DNA of 61,243 bases, counting the filler, from Nemertoderma westbladi (taxonomy: Eukaryota > Animalia > Xenacoelomorpha), in the NCBI GenBank assembly GCA_032718475.1. It is 3 parts of 3 records of this genome, joined end to end, with 100 filler letters (N's around TTAATTAATTAA, not from the genome) between each part and the next. Parts side by side here need not be neighbours in the genome. Positions count along the whole stretch, not along the records: positions 1 to 28,504 come from JAUCBJ010007808.1; 2 more parts are not named here. One strand, given 5' to 3'. Numbering within the stretch: position 1 is the first letter of the stretch; each line of letters starts with the position of its first letter. Positions 4,985 through 42,929 of the stretch are shown here, piece after piece. The notes under the pieces were generated by a model, which was not told the DNA's origin, did not search any database, and saw only the letters and a list, made by a program, of their open reading frames with translations. A program made the translations under genes and the position numbers.

Positions 4985-5745
4985 CTAAAAAATACAAAAC
5001 TTAGGTAAATATAACGTTGTCATTTGGAGCACTTCATTGTGATCAAATTGAGACAACTTCGTAAATATTCAATCAAGGACATCAATATAATTAATCAAAT
5101 GGCTATTGGACCATCCATTATTGCCAGCTCTCGTCTGACAAGCTTGTCTGTCAGTCTATTGGTTGTCCGGTTTCTGCAAATGTTGACGCATGTGTATAGC
5201 TGCCTCGGGTAGCCTGCTTGAGGTGAGGGCGCAAAGCAGGAGAAAGGCTACCCCTTCCCTCCAATCCTAATAATAAAACATTTTTTTTTTATAAAATGAG
5301 GGGGGGGGGGGTCATTTACACCTTTCCACATCAAATATAAAGGGGGCCCCGATATTCCCAATTACCTTGGCAGGGGCCCACTTTTTCTTCTCGGCGGCCC
5401 TGGTGGTAGGAGGAGGGTGAGGGGGGGGGGGGGGGGGGGGGGGGATTAGTGTTTGCTATCCAATAGTGTGCGTAAGATATTATAGTTTCATATAAATTTA
5501 GACTCTGAATACTTTTGTTAGTAAATTGCGTTGTCAAACACTCAATAATAATGTTAAAATGTTAATAGTTAAAATAGCCGTGAAGCTTATGACCACCAAT
5601 TCCCTAATCAGTAGAAAACTGTTAAAGAAAACAAAATTTAGAGAAATTTGAACCAGATTAATACGAGTCAAATTAAAAAAAAAAAAAGAAAAGAAACATT
5701 ATTCTAGAACGTAAAGATTTTCTAGGAGACTCCAGGTTACTTTAC
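4985..5745 (-). other. Single GT-AG intron of POLA1 (761 bp)
   Basis: Canonical donor and acceptor; removal restores the continuous conserved sequence EIRKLVDRRKQVKSLMK. Confidence 0.92.
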
Positions 5746-8256
5746 CTGCTTCCTTCGGTCCACCAACTTCCGTATCTCCTGTGGCAACACCCCCAACTCA
5801 GTAACGTTGCTAGGCACTTCCGGTATGACGTCATCCTCACCATGACGCCAATCCACTGTAGTGAAGCAGACGTTGTACTCCTGTATGATAGAGGGATAGA
5901 GACTGTTAAAATCCAGTAGGATGATGTACTTATCGTAGAAACCGCGTTTCGGCTCCAACACTAAACCCCCTGAGTATCCCGCCTTCTTGGACTTCTTCCG
6001 GTTTCCGGTCTGCTTGTCCGGACAGATGAAGTCGAGTTGGTTGAAGGCGTGGAGCAGCAGGAACTCGTTGCGTTCCGAGCGCCCGCCAATCAGAGTGCGA
6101 GACATCACGTTACCCGCGATACAGGTGATCTGGTAGGCCAACGGGAGGATGTTGAGTTGGTAGGCGATCCGTAGAGACAGCAAGGCGTCCGTCCAGGTCG
6201 CCTCCACCAACTCCATGAGACTCTTAGAGTCCTTGAAGCAGTGTAGGACTTCCTGCGGCTCGTAGGAGCGACGGGATTCCCGCAGCACGTGTCGGGCGAG
6301 CTCAGTAAGGTCGTAGCCTTTAGCGCGGATCAGCTCCCGGGCGGATAGGCCGACGTCGAGGAGGAGGCGACCGGCGGGGAGCGCGGCGCTACGAGACGGC
6401 AGCACGGAGCGGCGAAGACGCCCGAACCGGGACCAGTTGGCGACGCGGTCGCCGGACAGCTGGGCCAGCAACGCGTCCAGCCCGAAGCCGGACAGATCGT
6501 GTCCGACCAGCACGTCCGGGTCCATCCGGTGCAGCTTGGCGAGGAGGTAGCCGAGCAACGCGCGTTGGTTCGCGGAGACGTCGACGCGGATTCGGTTGCG
6601 AGCGAGGGAGTCGTGGAGGTCGTAGGGGAGGGAGCCGGAGCGGGGAGGGGCGAGTCCGAGGAAGTATGCGTCAAACCCGGGAGGTCCGGGGGCCGGCCGG
6701 TCCAGTCGGAAGTCCGACTGGAGGAGTCCGACGACGCCGACCACCTCGTTGGCGTTCCGCTCCGGGTTGTAGAGGAACCGCGGGGTTACCGAGAGGATGG
6801 AGAGCGGCGGGGGCGGAGGTTGTGACGCGGACGGCTCAATGGAGTTCGGCTCGACGGATACTTCGAACCGAGCCCAACTGAACCGACTCTTAGACGCCTC
6901 TGGTTGCTTTATGTCCAACCAACAGGGACCTTTAATCTTCCGGAGGAGGAGTATCGCCTCCAGGGAGGAGGTCGTCGTTCCGAATACCCGGGAGAACGTC
7001 TCCCCGACGGTGTCCGGGGATATCGCCGGATATTCCGGGGAATATCGGACCTCGAGATAGTCCGAACCGGACGGCACGTCGCCTAACTCGAAGGCGTACT
7101 TCTTGTAAACCGGACGGGAGCGGAACTTGCCGATGTTGAGATTCTCCGAGAGTTTGCTGAACTCCTCGTAGACGTCCTTGAGGGTGACGTCATCGCCGCT
7201 TCCGGTGCGTCGCTTCCGGGGCAGCAGGAAGATCCGTCGGTCGACGTTCCGGACGACCGCGCAGCCGCTCGCGTACCGACGCGCCGACGGGAACCAGACC
7301 TTCCCGAAGAGATAGACGACGCCGGGTTGCTTCGTCGCGTCGCTGTAAGCGTCCAACCAATAGAAACGCAGCAGCTTGTAGCCGCACCCGCTGTCCATCA
7401 CGGGGAGGGAACTTGTGTCCACCTCCTCCGGAACCTCCGGACATTCCGGGAGATCCAACTCGTCCCAGTTAAACGCCTTCTTATCGCACTCTTTAGTCTC
7501 CATCGGTTCCTCCTTAACTTCTACTGCGACGTTCTCTTTGACTTCCTTCGGTTGTTCGAAATCGGAATCATCGTCATCGGGGATCGTGTAATCGGAAATT
7601 GTTTCCGGTTCCGGTTTAACCGGAAGATTAGGTTTGAATTGATCTTTCTCGACTTTAGTTGGTTTGCTGGTAATGCCTTCCAGTGGATCGACGACGAACG
7701 GGTTCCCCTCCCGGCCTGCGTTGCTACTCCGTTTGATTTTCTTTTTTATCTTCGTCGGGAGGGGCCTAATGGTATCCTTGGAGGATATCCCGCTCAACAT
7801 CTCCTTCAGCAAGGTATCCTCCCCCAAAGTGGCGGCTTTCGGACCCGATGAACCGGAAGCAGTCATATTCCGGAACATGTTGTCTATCCCTTTAAACCCG
7901 TGTCCGGTTGCCAAGGATTCCGGACGACAGACTTTCTTGCGTTTGGGTTTACGGGAAGGCTCTTCATCCTCCACTAGGTCATCGTCGAATATTTCTCTTC
8001 CGTCGTCCAGGTAACCATCAAGGTTTCCCCCGTCGGCTATAAAACCCTCCGCCTGACGGGCCGTTACAAGTTTGGAGTATTTATCCTCATCAACAACGTC
8101 GTAGACATCATCCACATCCCCCACCTCGTATTTGAACCGTTTACCGCTTCTCTTCAGCTCTTTGAACCTGTCTAATGCCTCCTGCTTGGCGTTGGGTTTC
8201 TTGCTACGTCTGCTTCGACGGTGGTCGCCATCATCTCCGTTATTAATTTCTGCCAT
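5746..8256 (-). CDS. POLA1: DNA polymerase alpha catalytic subunit, exon 1
   Basis: ATG at 8256 (MAEINNG...RRSRR). Pol-alpha N-terminal acidic motif DDGREIFDD, FYWLDAY, GGRSERNEFLLLHAF and DFNSLYPSIIQEYN. Donor CAG|GTAAAG at 5746/5745. 837 codons; total protein about 1417 aa. Confidence 0.95.
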
Positions 8257-8514
8257 GTTCCAATTTTCAATTCTGCAATTGTAAGTTGTAACAAACTGGT
8301 CAATGACGAAGAATGAAGAATACTGATAAACAGACAGACAGACAGACAGAACTAGGAAGCTGAGGAGGAGGAAGTACAGGTATAACCTACTGACATACTG
8401 ACAACTGTTCAACCACACAATTTTAAATGAAATGTACAATACCGCGTAGCGGTACCGGGTACAATTTGCTGATTTGCCATTCTGCCATTAGATATCAGGC
8501 AGTCAGGTTAGATA

Positions 8515-12228: not shown

Positions 12229-15995
<3,767 letters not shown>

Positions 15996-16149
15996 GAAAA
16001 AACATTAAATTTAATGGAAAAGTAAATTGTACATATGAGTGAAGTAAAGAATTATTATATATTATAGTATTACAGTATATGAATAAAAATCAATAATAAT
16101 AAGGGTAAACCCGACCACTATAACATTTATAATACAATAATTATTGTCT

Positions 16150-16838
16150 GCTTAGTATTGGGTTGTGAGGTCTTGACCCCCTAGGCCTGCTCTGTCACCG
16201 AACCCCGGACCACACCAAGAACGCCGGCTAAGGCAAAGGGATGATGACCTTACAGTAGGAGGGCGAATAGCAGCCTCCTTAATGCCTCCGAGTAACGCTG
16301 CTAGACCGCGCTCCCGCATTGTGTCCCGTCTCCCAACAAGAGTCTCCACCAGGTGTCCTATGAAGACTTATGCTTCATGCCACCAGACCCCATCTGATGT
16401 TCCTGCGACATCTGATAACATTCTGCGGTCATCACACATCGTCCACTAATAATATTGCATTAGTGGCCAATAAAATCGATGGAATTAATAATGTAAGCCA
16501 TACCGATAAAAGTAATGCAATAATCATTCAGACAGGCAGGACTAGGAGGGCGAATAGCAGCCTCCTTAATGCCTCCGAGTAACGCTGCTAGACCGCGCTC
16601 CCGCATTGTGTCCCGTCTCCCAACAAGAGTCTCCACCAGGTGTCGTATGAAGACTTCTGCTTCATGCCACCAGACCCCATCTGATGTTCCTGCGACATCT
16701 GATAACATTCTGCGGTCATCACACATCGTCCACTAATAATATTGCATTAGTGGCCAATAAAATCGATGGAATTAATAATGTAAGCAATAATGTAAGTAAT
16801 AAAAGTAATGCAATAATCATTCAGACAGGCAGGACTAG
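16150..16838 (-). mobile_element. 3' RLE fragment of a second CRE-like family with a local tandem duplication (about 287 bp)
   Basis: SDGVWWHEAEVFIRHL...VRSSSLCL...GPGFGDRAG aligns by eye with CDGVLAPQADKLLRTI...IRGASHCL...GLGLDDGAG of 51955-52971. Segment 16256-16542 is repeated at 16543-16838. Confidence 0.65.
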
Positions 16839-16931
16839 CTACCGGTCTTAAGTCGAAACTGAAAGCTTTTTTGACATACGATATAGTACCAATACTGCTA
16901 CTAATAGGCATGCTAGAACTAAATTTAGTAA

Positions 16932-17121
16932 GGCCGCGTTCACACTACCGAGTCAATGTCAAAGACAAAATGTAAAAAAAATAACAAAAAATTTATCTTT
17001 TTCTAGAACGCCATTATGTATTATATTAGGCCTATATAATGTATTATTATTTATTATTGCTAGCTTAGCTATATTTATTTTCTTTTGACTTTGACTTTGA
17101 CTCGGTAGTGTGAACGCGGCC
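16932..17121. mobile_element. PIF/Harbinger-type (Tourist-like) MITE, 190 bp
   Basis: TIR GGCCGCGTTCACACTACCGAGTCAA / TTGACTCGGTAGTGTGAACGCGGCC, flanked by TAA on both sides (3-bp TSD). Confidence 0.9.
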
Positions 17122-17262
17122 TAACAGTTTATGAATACCGATATTTTTTAAGAGCTAGTTGTAACTAAATTAAGTCAATGCTCTAACTAAAGTGGGTTGG
17201 TTTTAGTAACAGATAGCTCTTAATAAGCATAGTTACAGCTACAGTATTACTAAAAGCTGTCA

Positions 17263-19809
17263 CTAAGTAGCTGTAACTAATGCGACTATTTCCTCGCAAA
17301 TTCGTCTATTTAGCATCCCAAAACCTCGACCAATTCCTCGTGACCGATCAGTTGTCACTACAGTTGGTAGAACGTCTGGGAACGCGCGAGAAGCGGACGA
17401 CGCAGACCCAAGAGTAGCTTGCGCCCCCTGTTGATCAGCTGGTGTATGTCCCGATCCTCCTACTGGATCTCTAGGAAGCGATACCGTATCCCGAGTAACT
17501 CGAATGGTCGGCTCAACTCCCTTGCGTTCTTCTATATTAATAATTTTCTTTAATTGTTGGCCCACTTTCTGGACCCGTATGATCCTACCCTGTCCGTCCT
17601 CCCGAGGGTGACGTGCAGACGGCGCAACCGGAGTGGCTGGTATATTCGTCGCCTCTAGGACCTCTTCTTCCTCGAATACACTCGCTCGTATACGTTTATG
17701 GTAAAACACGGCTCGGTACGCCCATGCGACGGTTAACCAAGCTCCTTTGTTCCGCTTTTCAGTTCGGAAACGATCGAATTCACCATACGTAATGCGATTA
17801 ACGACTTTCTGAAAATTCCACGTGTTTTTGTTATCCGGGTGAATCTGTAGTAGATACTCGCGCACTACTCGGAATCCGCTGTCGTGGGGCAAAATATCGA
17901 CAACCTCGATAAGTTCGTCATATTGGGGCATAGCGGAGATATATCCTTCCGACATCATTGTTTGAGGATTTACCGCCCAAAATCCGAGATGCGCTCTCAT
18001 CGGAAACCGTCTTCTTTGTGCCGATACATGTTCGTCGGCTAAATCTTCCCACTCATCAAATAACTTCCTCACGAGTTTTACAGATTCGTGTTCATAAGGT
18101 ATGTCTCTTAGTTGGCATTCAGATGCTCGATGTCCTTTTATATTGCAGTAAGTACATTGAGCCATAAATCTCCAGCAAGTATAAAAGGTATGAGACCCTT
18201 GATCCCCACACCATCCACAGATTAGCTGAGTCGTAGTAATGTGCTTTCCACTGCACTTTGTCATATGATGTCCAGCGACGCCACATTTACTACACATCGT
18301 ATTGGCAGGGTACCACACTCGTTCGTATATAAGATCTCCAATCGGTCGAGCGCTTCCTCCCATACTATAATCGTAATCATCTGGGTCTATGGGTTGGTAG
18401 GTTTCTGAAGGTTGTATACAAACTATAGCATCTGTTGCTTCAAGTTGTCGAATCTCCGTCTGAGATTTCTTCGGGAGGTTCCTTTCTATCTCAAGAAGTT
18501 CCTCCAAAGGATCGTCGGCGATCGTAGTAGTTACTTCGAAATCATCACCAAGGTGACCGATAGGCGCGCGCGTCTGCCGTGATTCTTCCGTAATTTCCAC
18601 GATACGTTCTCCTTCATAGGGTAACAATGTAAACATAGATGGTCTTTCGATAAGAGATCCCGCACAGCGAAGATACACGTCTCGAAATATACTAAATCCT
18701 GCTCGAGTAAAGGCATTACACTGAGCGTCGGAGTTGTAGAAGGGTTCAAGGAATCGTCTAAACACGTCGGTACGAATTCTCCCTTCCATGTAGAACGTAT
18801 GATCTTCTCCGAGACAAAGTGGATGTCTTTTGAGAGTCCGAGACACAATGTCGGCGATTAGGCAAACATTCACTGACGACTCTATTGCTAAATAATATTG
18901 TAAAACCGCTCTTGGAGGTGACGTAATAGCCCAATACACGCATCCTCTCCATTTAAGCTGTGATTCAAACTCACTCATATCTGGAGTATCACCTTCTCCA
19001 TAAGTTTCAATATACTTGTTTCTCTTATTTTCCTTATAATCCCAATTGAATAACAGGTAGGAAATGTATCCGGTTCCAGTCTTCTGAGTATTATACTCAC
19101 TAAAATATCCCTGTTCTATAGACCACAAAATAAGAGGTCGAGTGTCGACGTAAGGTGTCGGTAGTCGGTCATCGCTGTCCGTCATGCCGGCGAAGTCGCT
19201 AATTAAGTCCTCCCTTATTCCTGATCCAATCTTTACAACAGTTTTATCTAAAATCATGTTTCTTACCATCTTCGGTAGCATTCTAGCGTCAATATTACAA
19301 GCTTGGTCCATCTTCTTTACTATGTCGGTGATAAGATGGTGTCGCTTTGTATTCGCTGGAGGTATCGGCATTCGTTTGTCGCTCCTCTGTCTACTGAAAA
19401 CGTGCAGGACTCCGTCCGCCGCTCTAATTTGTATAGTCTTAGAAGTCAAACTCTGCTGATGACTGCCGCCCTCGTTATCGTAAAACATGTAACCATTTTC
19501 CTGAAACGATCTGAACGTCCTATTCCATTCATCCAACAATTCTTCCGAAGGTTGCCAAATCTTCTCTATGTCCTTATCATCTTCGAAACGAATAACCTTA
19601 CCTCGCCAATCCGCGGCAATATCTGTATCCGACTCGAAGGTTCCGGTTCCAATCCATAAACGAATCGTCTTGGTTAAATATCCTTTCAAATTACTCGGAG
19701 CTATATTGGCACCAGCTCTATCCAGTTCCTTAAAGTCTTGAATATGAGGTGGAACGTTGTACACGACCTTTTGAGTAATATGTCTACGTAAATCATATAT
19801 CTTACTCAT
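17263..19809 (-). CDS. 848-aa accessory protein: DEDD (WRN/RNase D/MUT-7-like) 3'-5' exonuclease plus three CCHC zinc knuckles
   Basis: Exo I FYDNEG, TIQI, Exo II LDKTVVKIGSGIRED, YVDT and Exo III-like QYYLAIE. Knuckles CSKCGVAGHHMTKC, CGWCGDQGSHTFYTC, CTYCNIKGHRASEC. Uninterrupted and intronless. Confidence 0.75.
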   Translation of the reverse strand: MSKIYDLRRHITQKVVYNVPPHIQDFKELDRAGANIAPSNLKGYLTKTIRLWIGTGTFESDTDIAADWRGKVIRFEDDKDIEKIWQPSEELLDEWNRTFRSFQENGYMFYDNEGGSHQQSLTSKTIQIRAADGVLHVFSRQRSDKRMPIPPANTKRHHLITDIVKKMDQACNIDARMLPKMVRNMILDKTVVKIGSGIREDLISDFAGMTDSDDRLPTPYVDTRPLILWSIEQGYFSEYNTQKTGTGYISYLLFNWDYKENKRNKYIETYGEGDTPDMSEFESQLKWRGCVYWAITSPPRAVLQYYLAIESSVNVCLIADIVSRTLKRHPLCLGEDHTFYMEGRIRTDVFRRFLEPFYNSDAQCNAFTRAGFSIFRDVYLRCAGSLIERPSMFTLLPYEGERIVEITEESRQTRAPIGHLGDDFEVTTTIADDPLEELLEIERNLPKKSQTEIRQLEATDAIVCIQPSETYQPIDPDDYDYSMGGSARPIGDLIYERVWYPANTMCSKCGVAGHHMTKCSGKHITTTQLICGWCGDQGSHTFYTCWRFMAQCTYCNIKGHRASECQLRDIPYEHESVKLVRKLFDEWEDLADEHVSAQRRRFPMRAHLGFWAVNPQTMMSEGYISAMPQYDELIEVVDILPHDSGFRVVREYLLQIHPDNKNTWNFQKVVNRITYGEFDRFRTEKRNKGAWLTVAWAYRAVFYHKRIRASVFEEEEVLEATNIPATPVAPSARHPREDGQGRIIRVQKVGQQLKKIINIEERKGVEPTIRVTRDTVSLPRDPVGGSGHTPADQQGAQATLGSASSASRAFPDVLPTVVTTDRSRGIGRGFGMLNRRICEEIVALVTAT

Positions 19810-20846
19810 ATCGCTAAAAACAACTGCAGGAAGAACTCCAAGTTCGAAATGATTTCTGGATGATCCACGATGGGTATTTCGTACGTCGTATCCTGTCGGA
19901 CTGGTATACTAATAGGAAAATTGAGTGTCGTACTCAATGGTTTCGTAGTTGAAGTACTATATGGTTGCATTTCTCTTGTCCTCTCCGGGGATGCAATCTG
20001 TAGTCTCTGAATAACGTTTTGAGCAAAGTTTATGCTCTCGAAAACTTCCGGTGTCATCTCCTTAGCTGGAGTTTGATCGTGTGACGTCCAATGGTAAGGT
20101 AGGCTCGCGAGTCTTCCGCCCCATTCTTCCATCTCACCTTTCTCGAAAGCCTTGTAGGCTCTGTATAGGCTAAGAGCTTCTTTCTTTTCGCGGGTTGACT
20201 GATTTGCCTCGTCCAGCGTAAGTTCAAATACATTGGGTTCAACAACCTTAGGTGGGTAAATGACAGTTTCTCCCGCCTTTGGTCCGGTCATAGCAAATGA
20301 ATGATATGGATTCGATAAAGGATACCCTCCTTCCTGGTAGCGTAGTTGTTGATGATTCGAACACCTCGCCAATATCGGTTCGGGATTTTCCTTATTCAAA
20401 CGCATCGGAATCGCATTTCGTTGTTCGCGCATACAAGAACCACATTGATAATAAAGTTTATACACTGAAAATGCTTCCTTGGTTTCTCTATCGTCCCCTC
20501 GAGTTCGTCTGTAAAGATGCATTCCATCAAATTCATCTCTTACCGCGGGCATAGGTTCGTGCGCCTTTAGGTATTGCATGGTATGATACAAACGACTAAT
20601 TTCAGTATCGGGGTCTTCGCTAATGTTGGTTTGGCGCAAACTTTCGATTCTTTCGTTTAATGCGTTTTGCCTTCTCTTTAATACATTTGAGTCATATTTA
20701 GTTCTCGCGAGTTTCGCTGTACTTTCCGATAATTCTTTTATACCGAATATAGTATAATCCTTGGCTCCAAATCTTTCGAATGGCGCTGCTGCCTCCTCTT
20801 GGATATCATATCCCCATCTCGGCTCTCCTTGTATCCCTTTCTCCAT
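19806..20846 (-). CDS. 346-aa accessory ORF of unknown function
   Basis: Uninterrupted ATG-to-TGA ORF with a coiled-coil-like segment (LKRRQNALNERIESL) and CGSC...CSNH. Its stop overlaps the next start (ATGA). Confidence 0.65.
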   Translation of the reverse strand: MEKGIQGEPRWGYDIQEEAAAPFERFGAKDYTIFGIKELSESTAKLARTKYDSNVLKRRQNALNERIESLRQTNISEDPDTEISRLYHTMQYLKAHEPMPAVRDEFDGMHLYRRTRGDDRETKEAFSVYKLYYQCGSCMREQRNAIPMRLNKENPEPILARCSNHQQLRYQEGGYPLSNPYHSFAMTGPKAGETVIYPPKVVEPNVFELTLDEANQSTREKKEALSLYRAYKAFEKGEMEEWGGRLASLPYHWTSHDQTPAKEMTPEVFESINFAQNVIQRLQIASPERTREMQPYSTSTTKPLSTTLNFPISIPVRQDTTYEIPIVDHPEIISNLEFFLQLFLAI

Positions 20847-21509
20847 AATTAGGGGTGTAGTTACATAATCATTACTACTAGAGGGAATACAACAGAGTTT
20901 GTAGTTAGTTGTGAGGAGACGTGAGAGTTTCGTCTGCCCTTTGGGCTCGACAACGCTCTAACCTCCTACCCATAGCCTAAGATCTAGGGTTTCTTTAATG
21001 ACACGCTGCTTCTTATCTAAAATTTTTTGCCGAAAAAAAACGAATTTGGGCTAAACTGGCTGTGAGTCTAAAATACTCACCTTTTGATCCCAAACTATTA
21101 TCAGAAAATAAGCAATCAAGAATTAGTAATAAATATAGGGGAGTCTATTTATTGACGTAACTTATTGAAACAAGACCGTGTAAAATTTAATTAAAATTTT
21201 AAGAAAGGCTCGCAAGTCTTCCTCTCTTGTTTCTCTAATTTTAAGTTCCACCCGACTGTACCCTGAAATCTATTCACTGGAGAAAATTTTAAAAATTTTT
21301 CAAATCCAAATGGATTGTCTAAAATTTCGAAAATGTCTCAATATTGTGAGTTCCAAGTAGAATTCCATTTCTTATACCTACAAATCCCGCTCCTATGTGA
21401 CACATAAGGGTACTACCCTCAATGTTCACATATAAAGACAATGGAATTCTACCGCTGTCCTTACTACGGTGTACAGGTACGTGGAAATCTATTTGTAAAC
21501 TCCTAATTA

Positions 21510-24500
21510 TTTACTAGTATTAGGTGGAGATTTGTAGTCTCCAGACTCGTTACGAGTCTCTTCAAGAAGTACGAGACGTTGAGTCGGTCTGTCTACTGTA
21601 CGACCGTCAATTGTCCGTTCTTGTCACTCCATCCATAGATGGATGTGTGGCTAAAATTACACCTGTTATCCAGAAGCGTCTTTTTAGATTCACTTCTGCT
21701 AACAGCACGTGATCTCCCGGCTTTAATGCGCGGGTGTTATTGTACCATGTTGTTCTGGCAGAAATAGAGGGCAAATAATGGTTTTGCCATATTTCCCAGA
21801 ATTTGTTAGCCAGTAGTTGCGTGATTTTCCACGCTTTTCTACCGTAACTGTCGCTTTCTATTGGAATAGAAATAGGTGTCAAAGTTGTCGGTGCCTGCAT
21901 AAGCAGGTGTGCCGGTGTCAAAGCAAACTGAGATTGTTTGTCATCGGGTACTAATACTATTGGTCTAGTATTTAGTATTGCCTCGATTTCAACAAACAAT
22001 GTTGTCAGTTGGTCGTCTGTCAATGTGGTTTACTGGAATGACCTTTGCCATGGCTGTCTTTATAGATCTAATCAGTCTCTCCCAGACTCCGCCTCTCCAA
22101 GGACTATCTGGAGGATTAAACTTCCAAACAATTTTGTGAGGTTGTAGTTCGTTCGAGATTTGATCATGATCTAATTTCTTAAAGGCTCTAGCAATCTCAT
22201 TCCGAGCACCAACAAAGTTTGTCCCTTGGTCTGAGTACAAGCATTTCACTAGTCCGCGTCTAGCGATAAATCGCCGCAGTGCTAGTATAAACGCGTTGGT
22301 GGAAAGATCCATCACACGTTCAATATGAACTGCCCTACTGGACATACATGTGAAAATCAGTCCCCAGCGTTTTACTAGTATACGTCCACGTTTCGTATGT
22401 ATGGGACCAAAGCAATCAATTCCAGTCTCTGTAAAAGGTGGTCTGAATGCTTGAAGTCGTGCTTGTGGAAGTTCACTCATTTCTTGGGTACCTATTCTAG
22501 AATGTACCTTTTTACAAATAATACACGTACGTGTCACTGAACTTAACGCTTTACTGTGTCTAATTAATACAAATCTTGTACGTAAGTAGGAAAGACAGTG
22601 GTGTCTTCCAGCGTGTTTCAGATGTAAATGTGCGTCCAGTATCATTGCACGTTGTAGTTCGTGATGCTGCGGTATTATTATTGGGTATCTAAAGTTCGTG
22701 TTAAAGTCAATGTTTTGAAGCCGAGATTTATGACAAATTAAGCCATTATAAATAATCGGACTCCAACTCAGTATTGGTGACGACTTGATTGGTAGACCTT
22801 GATTTATAGATGTGAATTCGCGCGCGAAATATCGCAGTTGGTAATGGCGAATTAATTTAATCTCACACCTGTCAATCTCAGCCAATGTAAGTCGACGTGT
22901 AAAGTCACGTTTGCCTTTTGCGTATTGTACAAAACGTACAATCCACGCTAACTTTCGGCAAGCGTTTGACCAAGAGTCTGTTAGGTTTACAATACGATCT
23001 ACGTAAGTATTTGTGACGTCATCAGGTAAGTCAATGGAGATTTTGGAAGGTTTTGAATTACTAGAAGGGCCCACGGGTCCGCCGGTAAGTATTCCCTTGT
23101 TGACTGTTGATCCGTCCGGGTCTACAAGTAATTTGTCCTTCTTTGTCTTCTTACCTTGATTGTCGGTACTTTGTAAGTCGATCGTTAATGGTGGTTTGAA
23201 CTCTATGGGGTCAGCAGGTTTCGGTAAACTTATTTTTCTGCCGACATTAATCCCAGGTTTCACCATAGGTTGCAAGTTCGGTATGTCTCTTGAGCGCAAA
23301 GTAACACCTGTATTTACATTAGAGTGGGTACTACCCACATCTGCAATACATGAGGTTTCACCGTGCTTATGGTTGCTCAAGTGTGTCAAATTTGGTAGTT
23401 TGTCAATACAAGGCCGCTCCAATAGGGAAACTGCGGCTTTACTGTTAGTCAATACATTACTAATGTCCGGTAGAACATTTTGTGATGTTTCTGACAAAAT
23501 GTCTAGTCGACTGTCTAGTAATGTGTCTGGCGATACGTCTGGTAACGTATCTGGTTGTTTGTCAATAGAAGGCCGCTCCAATAGAGAAACTGCGGCTTTA
23601 CTATTTGTCAGTATGTCACTAGTGTCTGGTAGAACATTTTGTGACATGTCTGGCAAAACGTCTAGTTGACCGTCTGGTAACGTGTCTGTTGGACCGTCTG
23701 GCGATATGTCTGGTGTAGAAAGGCTCGCAAGTCTTCCTCTCTTGACCTTTGAAGTTATATCCTTCCATTTCGCCTTCGGTTTTTTCTTAAGTTTAGCCGC
23801 CGTTGTCTTTTTCTTTGCCTTCCCCTTTTTTGGTTTCTTGATTTCGGCGTCCTTAGGGATAGTGTTAGACTTGTTGTCATATAATGGTGGCCAATTTAGT
23901 GTTGATCTTTGTAAGAATTGAGGTCCGTGTTGCCAAAATTCTTTGTTCTCCGGTTTACAGAATTCCTCAGGCATCATTCCTCGCGACGCAATATCGGCTG
24001 GGTTTTGTGGTCCGGGACAATGTCGCCAATCCTCTTTTATTGAATGGTCTAGAATTTCCGCGCGACGGTTAGCTACGAATGTCTTGAATTCAAGTGTGTC
24101 GTTGTTTATGTAAAATATAACCAACGTCGCGTCAGTCCAATAAAATATCTGTAAACTTGACTGTAGTTCTGTCTGTATAAGGTTCACGATGGTGGTTGAC
24201 AGTGTTGCGGCTTGTAGTTCAGCTCGTGGTGTCGTCATATACTTAGTAGGCATTGTTTTAGCCTTAGAAGTAATGAGCGAAACATCGAATTCGTCTGAGT
24301 CTACTTGTTTGCGCAAGTACGCTGCCACACCAAAACCGTTGTCACTGGCGTCAGAAAAACAATGTAATTCCAAGTTGTCAGGAAATGTAGTTTGTAATGG
24401 AAAGTAGATTCTGGGTATGGAATAATCCTCTAGCGAAGATAATTCCGCCTCCCAGGTCTTCCATAAGTCCACTTGGTCTGATGAGATCGGCTCGTCCCAT

Positions 24501-26340
24501 GTTAGTCCATCCTTCCAAATACTGCGCATATAAATGCGGGCTTGCAGTATAATTGGACTGATGAATCCTAATGGATCGAACAATCGGCTCAACTTTGACA
24601 AGCATGATCTCTTTGTCAGTGTGTTTTCTTGACTGTCCAGTCTCACTTTCACTCGAAAGTTGTCCATGTTTGGGTCCCAAAAGAGCCCCAACACCTTGGT
24701 CGTCGGTAGTGGTTCGAACTCTAGGTCTATGTCACCACCTCCACGCTCAGTCGTTCCGAATGAATCTACTAATTTGGCACTGTTTGAGGCGAATTTGGTG
24801 AGGTTAAAACCTCCGCCCGCTAAGCAGTCCCGTAATTGATGTGCTACTGTTGTAGCACGTTCTACTGTGTCGCAACTCTGTAAACCGTCGTCAACGTAAA
24901 AGTCACGCTCCACAATCCTAATTATCTCCTGGGTCATACAGGTGTTTCTGATCCCTAGCGGCCTGCTTTAGGGCGTACATCGTGCAATTTGGGCTGTCTC
25001 TGGCACCGAAAACGCGAACTTGCATTTGGTAAGTCGCCGGTGGTAGACTTAAGTCTCCTTCCGGGTACCAGAGGAACCGCAAACTGTCTCTGTCTCGCTC
25101 TAACGCTTTCACTTGGTGAAACATCGCTTCAACGTCGCAAGTAAAAGCTACTTGACGCTGACGGAAGCGCATAATCACCCCCATAAGATAATTATTCATG
25201 TTTGGTCCATCCATCAACTCACTATTGAGGGACATTCCCTCAAACAGAGCCGCACAGTCATTGACTACGCGTACTTTATCTGGTTTGTCGGGGTGTCTCA
25301 CATAGTGATGTGGCAGGTAGTATGTCTGGTTAGTCACTATCTCTGGGTTAGTCATTCGGATAGCGTATCCCTTAGTCAAATACGTCTCCATCTGAGTGTT
25401 GTACTGCAGATGGGCTTTCTCGTCCTTTAATAGACGTTGCCGTATTGAGTGTAGACGTCTTAAAGCCAGTGGGTAGGTTGTTTATAAGTTTAGGACTTTG
25501 GCTACGCCATAACATCCCCACCTCGTAATGTCCGTCTTTCGTCTGGCGGATAGTATCTTCCATGATCTTCAGAGATTGTTTCTCCTGTTCCGACATACAA
25601 GGTTCGTAGCTACCAGGTTCAGCTGTATCTTGTTCTAACCACCTGATAGTCTTCTCTGTTAATTCTTTGTCTAGTACAGCTTGTTCCAATTGATGATTTC
25701 TCAACGCGTCATCATCGATCTCGACGGGCATTGTTGAGGTTGTTGGGGTAGGTAGACTCGCAAGCCTATCATCTGTCGTCGATGGAATCTCTAGCTGACT
25801 CGTCTTCTCCCCAAGTTCTGAACTCACCTTGTGGATTAGCTGCTCCTTGTGACTTATCATACTAGTTACACGTCTGTCATGTTTTGTCGACTGTAGTGTA
25901 GTATGGTCCACATCGTGTGAAAAGGAATGGATTGAATTTGTAGTTAATAAACTACATGTACTTTGTACATCTTCCTCATCACTTATGTCTAGTGTGCGCA
26001 CAGGCGCTCGAGTATACCACCCTATCGGCGTTCTACAGGCGTATGCGTTTCCCGCTACGACTGCCGATGGTCTGGTTTCCCACACCTGATGTAGGTTGAA
26101 TTGGTCCGTCCCGATCAGCATTGCTACCGATCTATAATTGACAGGACATTCAGGTACACCAAGGTGTCTGAAATACTTACGGTCCTCCAAGGATTGTTCT
26201 GGGACCGGACCTAGTAGGTTACTAAAGTCTTTGGTGGCCGCAAAAGTCAGATCCTTGAAGGGTAACAAAGACCTCTCCCTCTCGCTGTGTTGCGATTTTG
26301 GAAGAAGAGAGTCTAAGTCCAACTTAACTCGTTGTAACTT
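21510..26340 (-). mobile_element. BEL/Pao LTR retrotransposon pol (protease C-terminus, RT, RNase H, integrase), frameshifted and 5'-truncated
   Basis: MLIGTD, TPIGW, YYLPHHYV..KVRVV, DVEAMFHQV, LRFLW, FGARDSP, FYVDD, LHCFSDAS, TPRAEL, WRHCPGPQNPAD, HHCC finger, GIDCFGP, SDQGTNF, GGVWERL, EIEAILNTRP. Split over four ORFs. Confidence 0.95.
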
Positions 26341-26629
26341 AATGATAAAAACTATTTCAGTTGGAGTTTTACACGCCCATATAATGCAGTAATGTATAAT
26401 ATCAATAAAATATAATTCAATTACCAATTAATTTCGCCCCTCGGGGCATCCTCAGGGTTCGCAACAACAACAAGCTCTATCGTACTACTAAATCGAACCA
26501 ACTACATTACTGTAATCTGATAATTACAGAGTTTCAACTCACTACTGCAGTAGCCGGCAGTACTGCAGTACCGGTACCTTGGTACAAGCAATTAATGTTG
26601 AGACGTTAAATCAACAAAATTTAAATCAG

Positions 26630-27890
26630 TAGAGTATGTAGGAGAAAATCAGACGGACATTCATATTGTACAGTAGGGGGCATTTATTACAGCTACAGTA
26701 TAACAGTAGTAGGATGGGTCCAATTAAATATAGGACAATAAATTTATTTCAGTAACGTTTCGGGCCACAAGGAAAACGTACTGTAGAAAAAGACCGGACG
26801 TATAAAGTTATTAGCATTATGACTACAATTTCGCCCAATAACACTGTAAAATCATTTTATTCTACAGGGTGTTACAAGCACGATAACCAATCAAGGAAAA
26901 CGTACTGTAGAAAAAACCGGCAATTTACCAAATATTAGCATTATAACTACATATTGCATCAAATAACACTGTAAAATCAATTAGTTCCCCGGGGTGTTAC
27001 AAGCACGATAACCAATCATGAAAAAACGCGGCCGTTATAACCTTGTATCTCCAATGAAAAAACATACGGAATTTTCAGCACACATGTACTGTATGTAAAA
27101 TTTGAGTTGGGACATTTGAGTCAATGTGTAGGCAAAGCCCATCAGCTTTCACATTGTACAGTAGGGTGGAACTGTTTCAGCATAAAAATATAAACCACAA
27201 GGAAAACGTAGGTATTTTCAGCACACATGTACTGTATGTAAAATTAGAGTTGGGGCATTTAAATGAAAATGTAGGCAAGACCAAACGGGATTCATATTGT
27301 ACAGTAGGGTGGAACTTCTATCACAGGGAAAACGTACTGTAGAAAAAACCGGAAGTTACAAAATATTTGCATTATAACTACATATTGCATCAAATAACAC
27401 TGTAAAATCACTTAGTTCCCCGGGGTGTTACAAGCACGATAACCAATCGTGAAAGAATGCGGCCGTTATAACCTTGTATTTCCAATGAAAAACATACGGT
27501 ATTTTCAGCACACATGTACTGTATGTAAAATTTGAGTTGGGACATTTGAGTCAATGTGTAGGCAAAGCCCACCAGTATTCGTATTGTACAGTAGGGTGGA
27601 ACTGTTTCAGCATAAAAAAATTTATATAAACCACAAGGAAAACGTACTGTAGAAAAAACTGGAAGTTAAGTAGGGTGGAACTGTTTCAGCATAAAAAAAT
27701 ATAAACCACAGGAAAACGTACTGTAGAAAAGACTGGAAGTTAAGTAGGGTGGAACTGTTTCAGCATAAAAAAATATATACCACAGGAAAACGTACTGTAG
27801 AAAAGACTGGAAGTTTCCAAAATTATTAGCATTATAACTACATATTGCATCAAATAACACTGTAAGATCATTTAGTTCCCCGGGGTATTA
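26630..27890. repeat. Complex tandem repeat region downstream of the Penelope ORF (units up to about 430 bp, with sub-repeats)
   Basis: GAAAACGTACTGTAGAAAA recurs near 26773, 26897, 27328, 27639, 27712 and 27786. TTTTCAGCACACATGTACTGTATG recurs three times. Confidence 0.8.
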
Positions 27891-27921
27891 CACTAAAAAT
27901 AATGAGTTGATAAATATACAA

Positions 27922-28504
27922 CTATACAGCTGGTCTCACTTTGTTCCACGGGGGGTTGAACTGAAAAATATAATTCGCTTCCGCATGTACTCTTGATTTG
28001 TTGTCCCGGAATTGGCGAAAAACCGTGATCCTAAAACTCTCCCAAGGGCACATACGGAAGTGTTCGCACAATAAAAACTCTGCTAGTTCATGGTAATCTT
28101 GGGGTGGTTGTTTCCTATACCCGTTTATGACCGATTTATGTTTAGATACTCTCTCGGCCAGCTTTTGCTCGGTCTGGCCAATATAAAAACCCCCCGGGTG
28201 GTCTTTGCACGTGATTGCATATAATACATTTGACGATACACACGAGAAAGAGCCCGTAACACGATCACCCCATGGTAGTACAGGAAGGTCAAACAAAAAC
28301 GGGCACGTAAGGCACCCCCCGCGTCCACATGGTGCGTTTCCCTGTCCTCTTGATGAGTCGCGTTTCACTATCAAGGAATTCCCCAAGTTTAGTCCACCTC
28401 TCTTCGTGACAATAACCTTAGCCCCTACCTCGGCTAAGGCGCGTTTGTTGTTGACCAACACAGTCTTTACGCACGGTCTAAAAGTTCCATCAATTTTGAA
28501 ATAA
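27922..28504 (-). mobile_element. Penelope-like element C-terminus with GIY-YIG endonuclease (cut by the gap)
   Basis: CGRGGCLTC...FSCVSSNVLYAITC...FYIGQT...LAERVSKH...HF...AEANYI...WN. Confidence 0.88.
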
Positions 28505-28604
28505 NNNNNNNNNNNNNNNNNNNNNNNNNNNNNNNNNNNNNNNNNNNNTTAATTAATTAANNNNNNNNNNNNNNNNNNNNNNNNNNNNNNNNNNNNNNNN
28601 NNNN
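28505..28604. other. Assembly gap with artificial linker
   Basis: 44 N + TTAATTAATTAA + 44 N; the 12-mer has stops in all six frames. Confidence 0.97.
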
Positions 28605-29078: not shown

Positions 29079-30573
29079 GATTTCAGGTCAAAATGTCGAA
29101 AGAGTCAAATTGTCGAACAGGTCAAAATGTCGAAAGAGTCAAGTTGTCGAACAGCCATGTCAAATTATCGAAAAAGCTTTCGACACAGACATGCCAAATT
29201 GTCGAAAGAGACATGCCAAATTGTCGAAAGAGACATGCCAAATTGTTAGAAATAGCCGGAAGCGTCCAATAGAAGCGTTCGATAGAGCCCTCCAATCTGT
29301 CGATATTAAGTACCAGGAGTATGGAGGACATGTAGCTGCCGAAATTAAGGGGAAACCATCTGCTGGGTACGGCTTCGTGTGCTGCTTCGAAACCGAGTGC
29401 ATGGTGTGGTGGGTGGAGAGCCCCATGTTTTAGGATACGCTCTGATGAAGGGACAATCGGAAGGAAGCTACATCAGGACGTTTACTGCTTTAAGATATAA
29501 CATTTATCATCTTTGCGGTGAAGGTGGCAGAATTAATACAGCTAAGTGGCTTTTCGATTTCGAACTTGCAGTAATAAATGCTTGCAATATAGTTTTCCCA
29601 ATGGTGACCATGTTAGGTTGTGCTTTTCATTTCGCTAAGGCCATAAACGAGAAGCGAGACAGCCTTGGCCTCAAAGGTGTTTGTGTTGAAGATACAGCAG
29701 AGGGTAAAACTGTAGTAAAGTATTGGTTCAAAGAGAGTCGTTCTTTACCATTCCTTCCTGATGGGTATCGCTATCGGGTTGTCTATACTCTGATCAATGA
29801 ACAGCTACCAAACCTGTCCGCTTTAACAGCCAATAAAGTTTTCCAATATCGACAATATTTCATTGGATTTTGGCTTCGGCAGGATGTATTCATCAGATGG
29901 GGACAGTTCGGAAATACCGGCCCTAGGACCAGCAACTTTGCTGAAGGTTTCCACAATGGGCTTCATTCCCGGCTCACCAGCCTCCATCCGTGCCTTGGAG
30001 AGATCCTGGAATTTTTCCAGTTAAATCAACATACTTCCCAGCAGCGCATGAAGGCCTTGCTAGAACCGAATACTATTGCTGTTCCCAAACCAAAGTCTCC
30101 ACATATCCAGATACGGGACCAACGCTTGGTTGAGGAGATGGGGCGATTCGCAAACTACATGGATTTATGACCTAATAACATTTATTATAATGACTGTAAG
30201 ATGTACATGCGTTGTTTGATGGTCATTGGACTGGTACCCCAGGCTTTAGAGGGGTAATGCCCAATGGTCAGCTAGTCAAGATAACTCTTACTGTATAGGC
30301 CTATATTGCCCATTGCTATTGAGATATTATACACAATTCGTTAGCCATATCAATTATCAGGTTTCCAATTTCTCAGGTTCAACAATTTAGTATCAAAATT
30401 CAAAAGTATCTAAAAAAGGATAAACGCCATATTGTCGAAAGGGGTGCGCCATATTGTCGAAAACAAATTCGACATTTTGACATGCCCAAAAACGTTTTTG
30501 ACAATTTTACTCTACTTTTCGACAATTTGTCTCTTTCGACATTTTGGCTCTTTCGACATTTTGACCATAAGCC
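29079..30573 (+). mobile_element. Internally deleted MULE (Mutator-like) DNA transposon
   Basis: TIR cores GGTCAAAATGTCGAAAGAG / CTCTTTCGACATTTTGACC with sub-repeats. 8-bp TSD CCACAGAA at 29071-29078 and 30574-30581. Confidence 0.88.
29379..30170 (+). pseudogene. MULE transposase, C-terminal part
   Basis: GYALM...SY...FDFELAVINA...FP...GCAFHF...RTSNFAEGFHN. The first catalytic Asp region and N-terminus are missing. Confidence 0.85.
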
Positions 30574-33513: not shown

Positions 33514-34320
<807 letters not shown>

Positions 34321-38030: not shown

Positions 38031-38418
38031 ATCAGACGCACAACGTCTGTCCAGGTGCTTGGGGCGCTTCTTTAATTGCGTAATGATTTCAACCAGCCAA
38101 GTAAACTTTATAACATCCATTTTCCCTATATTCCTTGAGATTTTGATAAAACATCATCGCGCCAATGTCTATAGCCAGCGGGAATAATATTGAAATCTAC
38201 TAAAAGCATCAATACAAACAGTATTATTTAACAATGTGTAGCGCCACTATCTGATAATCCTTGAATTAGGTGTGTGTATGGGATTATAATTAGGCCTACA
38301 GTAGTTCACCTCTATTATTGAGAATTATAATTATTTTTCCTTTCATATATATTCATTTTTTTCATTCATACAGCATACATTCATATTTTTATAATATAAT
38401 TTCTAGCTAAATAAACTT

Positions 38419-41400
38419 AGCTGAGGTGAAGCAGAGCGGTTCAACTGAGGTGAAGCAGAGCGGTTCAACTGAGACGAAGCAGAGTGGTTGAACTGAAGTG
38501 AAGCAGAGCGGTTCAACTGAGGTGAAGCAGAGCGGTTCAACTGAGGTGAAGCAGAGCGGTTCAGCTGAGGTGAAGCAGAGCGGTTCAGCTGAGGTGAAAC
38601 AGAGCGGTTCAGCTGAGGTGAAACAGAGCGGTTCAGCTGAGGTGAAACAGAGCGGTTCAGCTGAGGTGAAGCAGAGCGGTTCAGCTGAGGTGAAGCAGAG
38701 CGGTTCAGCTGAGGTGAAACAGAGCGGTTCAGCTGAGGTGAAGCAGAACGGTTCAGCTGAGGTGAAGCAGAGCGGTTCAGCTGAGGTGAAGCAGAGCGGT
38801 TCAGCTGAGGTGAAACAGAGCGGTTCAGCTGAGGTGAAGCAGAGCGGTTCAGCTGAGGTGAAGCAGAGCGGTTCAGCTGAGGTGAAGCAGAGCGGTTCAG
38901 CTGAGGTGAAGCAGAGCGGTTCAGCTGAGGTGAAGCAGAGCGGTTCAGCTGAGGTGAAACAGAGCGGTTCAGCTGAGGTGAAGCAGAGCGGTTCAGCTGA
39001 GGTGAAGCAGAGCGGTTCATCTGAGGTAAAGCAGAGCGGTTCAGCTGAGGTGAAGCAGAGCGGTTCAGCTGAGGTGAAACAGAGCGGTTTAGCTGAGGTG
39101 AAACAGAGCGGTTCAGCTGAGGTGAAGCAGAGCGGTTCAGCTGAGGTGAAGCAGAGCGGTTCAGCTGAGGTGAAACAGAGCGGTTCAGCTGAGGTGAAGC
39201 AGAGCGGTTCAGCTGAGGTGAAACAGAGCGGTTCAGCTGAGGTGAAGCAGAGCGGTTCAGCTGAGGTGAAACAGAGCGGTTCAGCTGAGGTGAAGCAGAG
39301 CGGTTCAGCTGAGGTGAAGCAGAGCGGTTCAGCTGAGGTGAAGCAGAGCGGTTCAGCTGAGGTGAAGCAGAGCGGTTCAGCTGAGGTGAAACAGAGCGGT
39401 TCAGCTGAGGTGAAACAGAGCGGTTCAGCTGAGGTGAAGCAGAGCGGTTCAGCTGAGGTAAAGCAGAGCGGTTCATCTGAGGTAAAGCAGAGCGGTTCAG
39501 CTGAGGTGAAGCAGAGCGGTTCAGCTGAGGTGAAACAGAGCGGTTTAGCTGAGGTGAAACAGAGCGGTTCAGCTGAGGTGAAGCAGAGCGGTTCAGCTGA
39601 GGTGAAGCAGAGCGGTTCAGCTGAGGTGAAACAGAGCGGTTCAGCTGAGGTGAAGCAGAGCGGTTCAGCTGAGGTGAAACAGAGCGGTTCAGCTGAGGTG
39701 AAGCAGAGCGGTTCAGCTGAGGTGTAAGCAGAGCGGTTCATCTGAGGTAAAGCAGAGCGGTTCAGCTGAGGTGAAGCAGAGCGGTTCAGCTGAGGTGAAG
39801 CAGAGCGGTTCAGCTGAGGTGAAGCAGAGCGGTTCAGCTGAGGTGAAACAGAGCGGTTCAGCTGAGGTGAAGCAGAGCGGTTCAGCTGAGGTAAAGCAGA
39901 GCGGTTCATCTGAGGTAAAGCAGAGCGGTTCAGCTGAGGTGAAGCAGAGCGGTTCAGCTGAGGTGAAGCAGAGCGGTTCAGCTGAGGTGAAGCAGAGCGG
40001 TTCAGCTGAGGTGAAGCAGAGCGGTTCATCTGAGGTAAAGCAGAGCGGTTCAGCTGAGGTGAAGCAGAGCGGTTCAGCTGAGGTGAAGCAGAGCGGTTCA
40101 GCTGAGGTGAAGCAGAGCGGTTCAGCTGAGGTGAAGCAGAGCGGTTCAGCTGAGGTGAAGCAGAGCGGTTCAGCTGAGGTGAATCAGAGCGGTTCAGCTG
40201 AGGTGAAGCAGAGCGGTTCAGCTGAGGTGAAACAGAGCGGTTCAGCTGAGGTGAAGCAGAGCGGTTCAGCTGAGGTGAAACAGAGCGGTTCAGCTGAGGT
40301 GAAGCAGAGCGGTTCAGCTGAGGTGAAGCAGAGCGGTTCAGCTGAGGTGAAACAGAGCGGTTCAGCTGAGGTGAAGCAGAGCGGTTCAGCTGAGGTGAAG
40401 CAGAGCGGTTCAGCTGAGGTGAAGCAGAGCGGTTCAGCTGAGGTGTAAGCAGAGCGGTTCATCTGAGGTAAAGCAGAGCGGTTCAGCTGAGGTGAAGCAG
40501 AGCGGTTCAGCTGAGGTGAAGCAGAGCGGTTCAGCTGAGGTGAAGCAGAGCGGTTCAGCTGAGGTGAAGCAGAGCGGTTCAGCTGAGGTGAAGCAGAGCG
40601 GTTCAGCTGAGGTGAAGCAGAGCGGTTCAGCTGAGGTGAAGCAGAGCGGTTCAGCTGAGGTGAAGCAGAGCGGTTCAGCTGAGGTGAAGCAGAGCGGTTC
40701 AGCTGAGGTGAAACAGAGCGGTTCAGCTGAGGTGAAGCAGAGCGGTTCAGCTGAGGTGAAGCAGAGCAGTTCAGCTGAGGTGAAGCAGAGCGGTTCAGCT
40801 GAGGTGAAGCAGAGCGGTTCAGCTGAGGTGAAGCAGAGCGGTTCAGCTGAGGTGAAGCAGAGCGGTTCAGCTGAGGTGAAGCAGAGCGGTTCAGCTGAGG
40901 TGAAGCAGAGCGGTTCAGCTGAGGTGAAGCAGAGCGGTTCAGCTGAGGTGAAGCAGAGCGGTTCAGCTGAGGTGAAGCAGAGCGGTTCAGCTGAGGTGAA
41001 GCAGAGCGGTTCAGCTGAGGTGAAGCAGAGCGGTTCAGCTGAGGTGAAACAGAGCGGTTCAGCTGAGGTGAAACAGAGCGGTTCAGCTGAGGTGAAACAG
41101 AGCGGTTCAGCTGAGGTGAAACAGAGCGGTTCAGCTGAGGTGAAACAGAGCGGTTCAGCTGAGGTGAAACAGAGCGGTTCAGCTGAGGTGAAACAGAGCG
41201 GTTCAGCTGAGGTGAAACAGAGCGGTTCAGCTGAGGTGAAACAGAGCGGTTCAGCTGAGGTGAAACAGAGCGGTTCAGCTGAGGTGAAACAGAGCGGTTC
41301 AGCTGAGGTGAAACAGAGCGGTTCAGCTGAGGTGAAACAGAGCGGTTCAGCTGAGGTGAAGCAGAGCGGTTCAGCTGAGGTGAAACAGAGCGGTTCAGCT

Positions 41401-41858
41401 GAGGTGAAGCAGAGCGGTTCAGCTGAGGTGAAACAGAGCGGTTCAGAGCTGAGGTGAAACAGAGCGGTTCAGCTGAGGTGAAACAGAGCGGTTCAGCTGA
41501 GGTGAAACAGAGCGGTTCAGCTGAGGTGAAACAGAGCGGTTCAGCTGAGGTGAAGCAGAGCGGTTCAGCTGAGGTGAAACAGAGCGGTTCAGCTGAGGTG
41601 AAACAGAGCGGTTCAGCTGAGGTGAAACAGAGCGGTTCAGCTGAGGTGAAACAGAGCGGTTCAGCTGAGGTGAAACAGAGCGGTTCAGCTGAGGTGAAAC
41701 AGAGCGGTTCAGCTGAGGTGAAGCAGAGCGGTTCAGCTGAGGTGAAACAGAGCGGTTCAGCTGAGGTGAAACAGAGCGGTTCAGCTGAGGTGAAGCAGAG
41801 CGGTTCAGCTGCGGTGAAGCAGAGCGGTTCAGCTGAGGTGAAGCAGAGCGGTTCAACT
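38419..41858. repeat. 24-bp satellite array, about 143 copies
   Basis: Unit AGCTGAGGTGAA(G/A)CAGAGCGGTTC, head-to-tail with no spacers. Confidence 0.98.
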
Positions 41859-42929
41859 CGAAAAATTACCTCATTTTTATGATTACAAGTTGTGGGAATG
41901 TGTAGACCAAATCTTGAACAAATTTACCAACTGTAGGCCTATAATTTTTAAGTATACAATTAATTTTATCTTCTAGTAGATAATAATAAATTTCCATGAA
42001 AGAACAGACTGAAAATGCCGCTATTTACTGCAATTAGCATTATTAACTAATTAACTGCTTTGATATTAGGTTCTCGTTCTCGTCTCTAAGTCCACACGTA
42101 AATTCTGCTTGGAAAATTTCTAAACGTTTGCTAGACTACACGTGTAGTGTACCAGGCTTGATTAGATTTCATCGAGGATTGACCGATTTATTGACCGATA
42201 CTGTATGGATGCTCGGAACTTGATAAGCCTAATATTGCAGAGATATCGCTACAACTTCATAAAGCAATGAGAACTATATGTGCAATAGGAAACTATGTTT
42301 CTAATGGAATTCTATGTAAACTCTTTGGTATGATCAACCTGGAAGATTTCCTATACTTCAAAACTGCGTCATTTACCTACAGCATCTTAAATTGTCCTAA
42401 TAGAAAGGTTCTTTTCTTCTTTCATCATTTAATCTGTCTGCACCTTGCAGGTCTGTCTAGTGCTCAGATTTTTTTCCGTTATGGTGTCTCCGCATGGCAC
42501 CTCGGTTTACCAAGTTTGTCTTCTCTGAGTGTCTCTAGATACAGTTTCAAGGCCATACGGAATCGACATGGAAAATCTCAAGCCACCGAACTGAGTCCTG
42601 CTAGTCAGTATAAACTCTTTTTTATTGGTACCATACTGAGTTGCACCACTGGCTCACATGCAGCTCGCCATTTAGTGGTATTGGACTTTTATAATCTTTA
42701 TCAATAATAATAATACCCATAAAAGTATAAGTATAATAAATAATACTTAATCAATAATACTCCTAATGATATGGCATCTGATTAGGCTCAAAATCCAATA
42801 TTTCACTCTTCAATATCAGTATGGTGTTCTTCAATATCAATATTGCGAGTAATATCAATAATATTACATCATCATGCAATATTATTACACCTTAATGCAA
42901 TATATATTGAATATTCAATAATTAACAGA

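Follow-up and report, generated by a model that had tools for sequence, protein, structure and literature searches.

We analyzed a 61,243-nucleotide stretch of DNA from Nemertoderma westbladi (assembly GCA_032718475.1; hereafter the window), positions 1–28,504 of which come from record JAUCBJ010007808.1, and found a broken copy of a high-copy BEL/Pao long terminal repeat (LTR) retrotransposon that carries an additional gene 3′ of pol. This third open reading frame (ORF3) encodes a predicted RNA-binding 3′–5′ exonuclease, in which a putative RNase D-like domain of the DEDDy type is followed by three CCHC zinc knuckles. Judging from these sequence features, and with about even confidence, we propose that the protein binds host small RNAs and trims or destroys them. 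An original prediction, made from the window alone, had described an element-encoded accessory protein with a DnaQ-like domain and knuckles, tied to BEL pol. Contig depth, protein alignment, a structural search and the Atlas searches described below agree with that description, and they revise its account of how the gene is built.

pol and the accessory gene form one high-copy repeat

The element lies on the minus strand at 17281–26332 as an internal fragment, delimited by contig depth and loose contig ends. Its pol remnant (21507–26332, from Pfam matches and the ORF map) encodes a reverse transcriptase (RT) with a YVDD motif, a Pao-type ribonuclease H (RNase H) region and an integrase with a DUF5641 tail. 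The order of these parts is that of a Pao-type pol, and matches to PF05380 (E=2.4e-42), an integrase zinc domain and PF18701 (DUF5641; E=1.7e-16) confirm the BEL assignment of the original prediction. The last pol stop is at 21507–21509 and is followed by a spacer of 660 nt (20847–21506) before the accessory region begins on the same strand, close to the predicted distance of about 670 bp. Between the RNase H region and the integrase, a long low-complexity insert holds a 159-nt tandem duplication (81%) at 23390–23707.

To relate the two coding regions we used five public sequencing runs (X1–X5) with partial matches to the stretch, comparing their contigs over 14500–28500. Summed contig depth, which is no measure of copy number, ranged from 24,665 to 88,124 across all X1 bins between 17302 and 26174 and from 65 to 214 in the outer flanks; the corresponding values in X2 were 13,834–65,474 and 92–267. 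At each end of 17281–26332, depth thus changes by a factor of more than 100 in these two runs, with pol, spacer and accessory region covered alike, as expected for a dispersed multicopy repeat that includes the extra gene. Because the two regions share this depth, both are parts of one high-copy BEL/Pao family: pol and the accessory gene are linked as one repeat, and the gene almost certainly belongs to the mobile family. No single contig listed spans the interval from integrase to exonuclease; X4 contigs tile it (18944–20787, 20825–21290 and 21296–21846). In X4, depth at 17302–18235 and 23840–24306 is 10–20x higher than in the rest of the element, and this run, unlike X1 and X2, has no coverage of the outer flanks.

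Contigs end loosely at 17281 in X2, X4 and X5 and at 26332 in X1, X4 and X5, so other copies extend past both ends. The copy in the window is cut at these two points and therefore lacks gag and LTRs; no LTR-like repeat pair occurs in the window, and the 3′ LTR lies outside it, which is a gap in the case for the gene as part of the element. Positions 17263–17280 are non-element flanking DNA, given the divergence at 17281 in X2, X4 and X5, and an X4 contig from the flank differs beyond 17280. At the other end, X2 joins the DNA right of 26331 to other sequence.

A single accessory gene for a predicted exonuclease with zinc knuckles

In the window, the accessory region appears as two minus-strand ORFs at 20846–19806 (346 amino acids) and 19809–17263 (848 amino acids), which the original prediction had taken for two intact, intronless genes, the first of them an orphan. 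Both frames are indeed open here, but other copies read them as one gene. In each of two contig comparisons, all four runs with contigs at this point differ in length from the window near 19.83 kb, and the contigs with this difference bring both frames into register. The supposed 346-aa orphan and the 848-aa ORF are therefore one gene. The frameshift of the window copy (~19.83 kb) falls within the overlap of the two frames (19806–19908), located by contig indels and variant effects: only the downstream frame makes the variant at 19816 synonymous, and only the upstream frame those at 19845 and 19917. The share of depth carrying the difference was 10% in X1, 49% in X2, 54% in X3 and 100% in X4, and further contigs end loosely at ~19.83 kb; a minority of the copies may thus form a lineage in which the gene is split. 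An X4 contig (contig 16) crosses the junction and, near 20627, differs in length without loss of frame. We rejected translational coupling through the overlap of the 346-aa stop and the 848-aa ATG, because other copies read through.

The 848-aa ORF is not intact at its other end either, since its last 5–6 codons and stop are flank, the repeat ending at 17281. The family gene thus exceeds 1,180 codons, and its product would consist of an N-terminal domain, the predicted DEDDy exonuclease, the three CCHC knuckles and, last, a conserved tail. The original prediction had also suggested that the accessory ORFs were retained while pol decayed. The window pol has frameshifts near 25.5, 24.9, 22.0 and 21.6 kb, with indel differences from other copies near 22.0, 24.9 and 25.5 kb. 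Since the breaks in pol and in the accessory gene both differ in other copies, both genes decayed together in this truncated copy, within which no break interrupts the nuclease and knuckles. The window copy, which has no LTRs, is a broken fragment and not a tamed host gene.

Two further joints, 18605–20691 in X2 and 18717–20707 in X4 and X1, mark two independent deletion derivatives that have lost the N-terminal domain and the exonuclease and kept the knuckles. Their coding-strand ends are not GT-AG, and we therefore rejected them as introns.

The predicted exonuclease domain is placed at 18832–19677 by motifs, homologues and fold searches. Under the definition of DEDDy motifs (D-x-E in Exo I, D in Exo II, Y-x3-D in Exo III), the motif alignment identifies D111 (19479), E113 (19473), D201 (19209), D222 (19146), Y306 (18894) and E310 (18882). 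A phmmer search of 1.84 billion representatives returned six hits, two of which (P0001 and P0004) matched the knuckles only and were set aside. The other four (P0002, P0003, P0005 and P0006) are ENA records of 558–715 aa with 19–23% identity and share the layout of the window protein: exonuclease, variable linker, three knuckles and conserved tail. D111, E113, D201, D222 and Y306 are invariant in all five proteins at ~20% identity, so that the WRN/RNase D-type motifs of the original prediction are kept in all four homologues; the last position is Glu in three proteins and Asp in two. A profile built from the four homologues alone matched a single place in the window, this ORF, across both domains (E=1.3e-34). 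Word-index protein searches with the window protein, alignment A1 and P0006, limited to near lengths, found no relative, and no related loci were found in metagenome contigs, in viral contigs or by phage tblastn.

The three knuckles (18115–18294; Pfam and alignment) follow the exonuclease after a linker of ~180 residues and occupy residues 506–519 (18294–18253), 531–545 (18219–18175, CX2CX5HX4C) and 552–565 (18156–18115), as predicted; their best profile matches are retroviral nucleocapsid and Lin28 knuckles. A conserved block beyond them (17911–18048), with E588, A591, R600, F610, P615, Y630 and L633 invariant in all five rows of alignment A1, has no named family in Atlas for the homologue searched; the knuckle and tail part of P0002 scored at best 0.87 there, a lead only. 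The N-terminal part of the gene (19834–20846) had no match in Pfam, NCBIfam or PHROG. The highest 19-residue hydropathy values of the two ORFs, 1.38 and 0.96, indicate no membrane anchor, and we found no signal peptide or glycoprotein match in the window, where the true C-terminus is missing. As originally proposed, the protein is not env-like.

A structural search with a model of the protein returned Pol I exonuclease as its best match (Z 6.1, root-mean-square deviation 4.4, 133 aligned residues), followed by Nibbler (5.8), Exd1 (5.6), Egalitarian (5.0), Trypanosoma brucei RNase D (TbRND; 7c42, 5.0), WRN (4.8) and RNase D (4.7), although Z values below 8 may reflect only a common arrangement. 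Judged by their titles, 49 of the 50 rows listed are DnaQ-like exonucleases or polymerases holding one. In Atlas, residues 40–275 of P0002 had a feature score of 0.94 to a cluster in which 34% of members carry PF01612, and PF01612 appeared in all seven structure rows (template modelling score 0.57–0.61 by query); two rows reach the Atlas bar for PF01612. Sequence-library searches gave hints to EXD2 (E=0.024), DnaQ (E=0.15) and Egalitarian (E=0.2).

Several results pull the other way. The window protein has no Pfam hit at the PF01612 cut-off, and among the four homologues only P0005 matched that family, below the cut-off (E=0.2). The five-sequence structure model was poor (predicted local distance difference test, pLDDT, 43; predicted template modelling score, pTM, 0.39) and a single-sequence model unusable (pLDDT 30), and Foldseek searches of PDB and BFVD yielded nothing at E<=0.001, the first row, EXD2, not being significant. 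Glu replaces Asp at Exo III in the window protein and in two of the four homologues. The structural searches thus divided, with the listed rows agreeing on a DnaQ-like fold and Foldseek finding nothing significant; the structural search and Atlas together lend that fold modest support. Fold searches and motifs jointly make a DEDDy exonuclease likely but do not distinguish an RNA from a DNA substrate. We consider a DEDDy fold highly probable, and the protein is predicted, with fair confidence, to be an active nuclease.

To ask how the gene evolves, we turned to variants among copies over 18800–19950, evaluating the best supported 40 of 56 variant places. Twenty-eight of the 40 are synonymous, compared to a null mean of 12.2 (20,000 draws, P<1e-4), giving an omega of ~0.19, and none alters D111, E113, D201, D222, Y306 or E310. 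Five of these variants are fixed against the window in X1–X3 and look private to the window copy (two synonymous, three not); among the remaining 35, 26 are synonymous. Elsewhere in the element, only 4 of the 14 top rows, many of them near-fixed, are synonymous, as expected for neutral decay of the window copy. These substitution patterns indicate that purifying selection acts on the accessory gene within the family.

Thirty-one nucleotides before the ATG lies a candidate 3′ splice site (20878–20912), consisting of a CTAAC branch-like motif, a pyrimidine tract and a YAG ending at 20878. Among the 644 minus-strand AG sites of the repeat, no other passes all criteria, whose thresholds were set from this very site; by pyrimidine content alone, it comes sixth. 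Position 20878 is also precisely where a single X4 contig ends loosely, which suggests an env-style subgenomic mRNA produced by splicing, or a DNA copy derived from it. Run X5, which we guess to be RNA, was not used as evidence of expression.

Other features of the window

Upstream in window coordinates, a broken non-LTR retrotransposon occupies 12360–16004 on the minus strand (RT PF00078, E=5e-14; depth 157–267 in X1 and X2). It has an upstream Ulp1-type protease ORF (PF02902, E=7.8e-10) and a tail that, by its motif, is likely a restriction-like endonuclease. A 287-nt tandem duplication (99% identity) lies at 16256–16789, and a short element resembling a miniature inverted-repeat transposable element, with 61-nt inverted ends (84% complementary) and high depth, adjoins the BEL break point at 16928–17125. 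Two genes are intronless over the stretches seen. One, at 5737–8487 on the minus strand, encodes DNA polymerase alpha and is open for at least 916 codons; the other, at 33571–34320 on the plus strand, encodes triosephosphate isomerase. They may reflect an intron-poor animal-like genome or may be retrocopies. An ORF at 27922–28503 (minus strand) is GIY-YIG-like by motif, with no Pfam hit, and a Mutator-like element (MULE) transposase fragment lies at 29349–30170 (plus strand; PF10551, E=1.2e-05). A 24-nt minisatellite of ~150 units with strong GC skew fills 38309–42000. Runs of N with the linker TTAATTAATTAA at 28505–28604 and about 51428–51538 are joints, and the order of sequence across them is uncertain.

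Relation to known systems and possible function

The closest precedent comes from bdelloid rotifers, in which RNase D-like DEDDy ORF3s were described in the Juno and Vesta LTR elements and in Athena/Terminon elements (Rodriguez, Kenefick and Arkhipova, 2017; PMC5408684); that paper presents DEDDy exonucleases as previously unreported in retrotransposons, and reviews repeat the account. As there, the gene described here places a DEDDy exonuclease at the env position 3′ of pol, with no membrane domain and one Asp-to-Glu change in its acidic motif, and the rotifer ORF3s are described as separate spliced units, as the splice signal suggests for this gene (PMC5408684). The carrier here is BEL/Pao, unlike Juno and Vesta, and the protein has more than 1,180 residues, its predicted exonuclease being joined by an N-terminal domain, three CCHC knuckles and the conserved tail. 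The main text on the rotifer ORF3s reports no knuckles (PMC5408684). The family in Nemertoderma is also high-copy with a synonymous excess, whereas the rotifer elements are described as low-copy with no sign of selection (PMC5408684).

In layout, the protein resembles TbRND, a DEDD exonuclease followed by a CCHC cluster that trims small RNAs (PMC7797062) and whose knuckle domain is needed for RNA binding and efficient cleavage (Gao et al., 2021; PMC7797062). TbRND was matched both by the knuckle profile (7c45, E=0.0021) and by the fold search (7c42). TbRND belongs to the mitochondria of its host, and its four fingers adjoin the nuclease (PMC7797062), in contrast to three after a ~180-residue linker in a mobile element, and the resemblance is one of layout that does not imply homology. 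Host Nibbler/MUT-7, EXD1, EXD2 and Egalitarian share the predicted fold and are among the top rows, but no host DEDDy protein gave a significant sequence match (EXD2 being the best), and nothing points to any of them as donor. Among BEL/Pao elements themselves, the nematode Cer elements are reported to carry extra coding sequence 3′ of integrase, reportedly including an RNase D-like domain (Malik et al. 2000); the original prediction, too, mentioned accessory exonucleases for some nematode BEL elements. The passages of related papers that we consulted make no mention of such a domain in Cer elements and describe a phlebovirus-like env and a YVDN RT motif; the window element has YVDD and no env. 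The literature searched held no BEL/Pao exonuclease ORF and no ORF3 joining exonuclease and knuckles, although subscription papers, Repbase notes or supplements may hold one. The gene is thus new in carrier and architecture, and of a kind, the DEDDy ORF3 of LTR elements, already described in 2017.

How might such a protein act? A leader spliced to 20878 would give a soluble product separate from Gag-Pol. By analogy with TbRND, its knuckles would hold single-stranded RNA and feed the 3′ end to the two-metal DEDDy site, the putative targets being host PIWI-interacting RNAs (piRNAs) or small interfering RNAs (siRNAs). Production separate from Gag-Pol would let the protein work in trans, as would be expected of counter-defence more than of proofreading, and the nuclease-less deletion derivatives imply that copies spread without the nuclease in cis, which also fits a trans-acting product. 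Counter-silencing is our best guess for the main role, held at slightly less than even confidence.

The protein might instead aid replication, its nuclease trimming the 3′ ends of the element's own RNA, primer or complementary DNA (cDNA) or editing RT errors, while the knuckles serve like nucleocapsid in the particle. The nucleocapsid and Lin28 matches of the knuckles would suit this, as would the tie between Pol I, Klenow and WRN exonuclease domains and RNA enzymes in the structural search, and replication is the first role offered for the rotifer ORF3s (PMC5408684). We nevertheless consider it unlikely, given that the protein lies outside Gag-Pol and is likely made from its own spliced mRNA, and that derivatives without N-terminal domain and exonuclease exist among the copies. 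Most BEL/Pao elements presumably replicate without such a gene.

A catalytically weak or dead RNA-binding adaptor, comparable to Exd1, Egalitarian or Maelstrom, could export, localize or shield element RNA. The Exd1 and Egalitarian matches, the Glu at Exo III and the large N-terminal domain of no known family are compatible with an adaptor, and inactive DEDD derivatives act in piRNA biogenesis (PMC5408684); the five invariant residues and the Asp or Glu at position 310 across all five proteins nevertheless follow the pattern of a working two-metal site, and we think this role improbable. Seen in the window alone, with its long open ORFs, with no listed contig spanning pol and exonuclease and with no LTRs bracketing them, the gene might pass for a captured host gene or separate passive insertion, or for a cassette domesticated at the locus as pol decayed. 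This explanation is largely refuted and very improbable, because depth runs on unbroken from pol and falls where the two share their ends, the window copy is frameshifted and truncated, and its private variants look neutral (2 of 5 and 4 of 14 synonymous) as opposed to 26 of 35 among other copies. The independent insertion that would have explained the gene away is contradicted by the same depth and ends.

The counter-silencing reading faces objections of its own. Pol I exonuclease stands level with the small-RNA enzymes, so that a DNA substrate is possible. The four homologues have no N-terminal domain. The splice evidence consists of one contig from a run of guessed kind, with thresholds chosen after the fact. 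In rotifers, DEDDy ORF3 showed no clear correlation with copy number, and the ORF3s are still hit by small RNAs (PMC5408684). Finally, the activity, substrate and silencing effect of the window protein are predictions.

The rotifer DEDDy ORF3s, for which the same two candidate roles were proposed (PMC5408684), raised the question of whether retrotransposons of animals may encode anti-silencing enzymes themselves. The present case extends that question to a second retrotransposon superfamily and to a family that is high-copy and shows a clear synonymous excess, with catalytic positions conserved in remote homologues and a predicted RNA-binding knuckle cluster that resembles the one in an enzyme known to trim small RNAs. 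A tentative extension, which we regard as unlikely to hold, is that an unrecognized family of retroelement RNase D and knuckle proteins acts, from a spliced mRNA, as an animal transposon suppressor of small-RNA silencing. If true, the suppressor would bind and degrade piRNAs or siRNAs, would have helped this family amplify, and would have relatives in other eukaryotic DNA.

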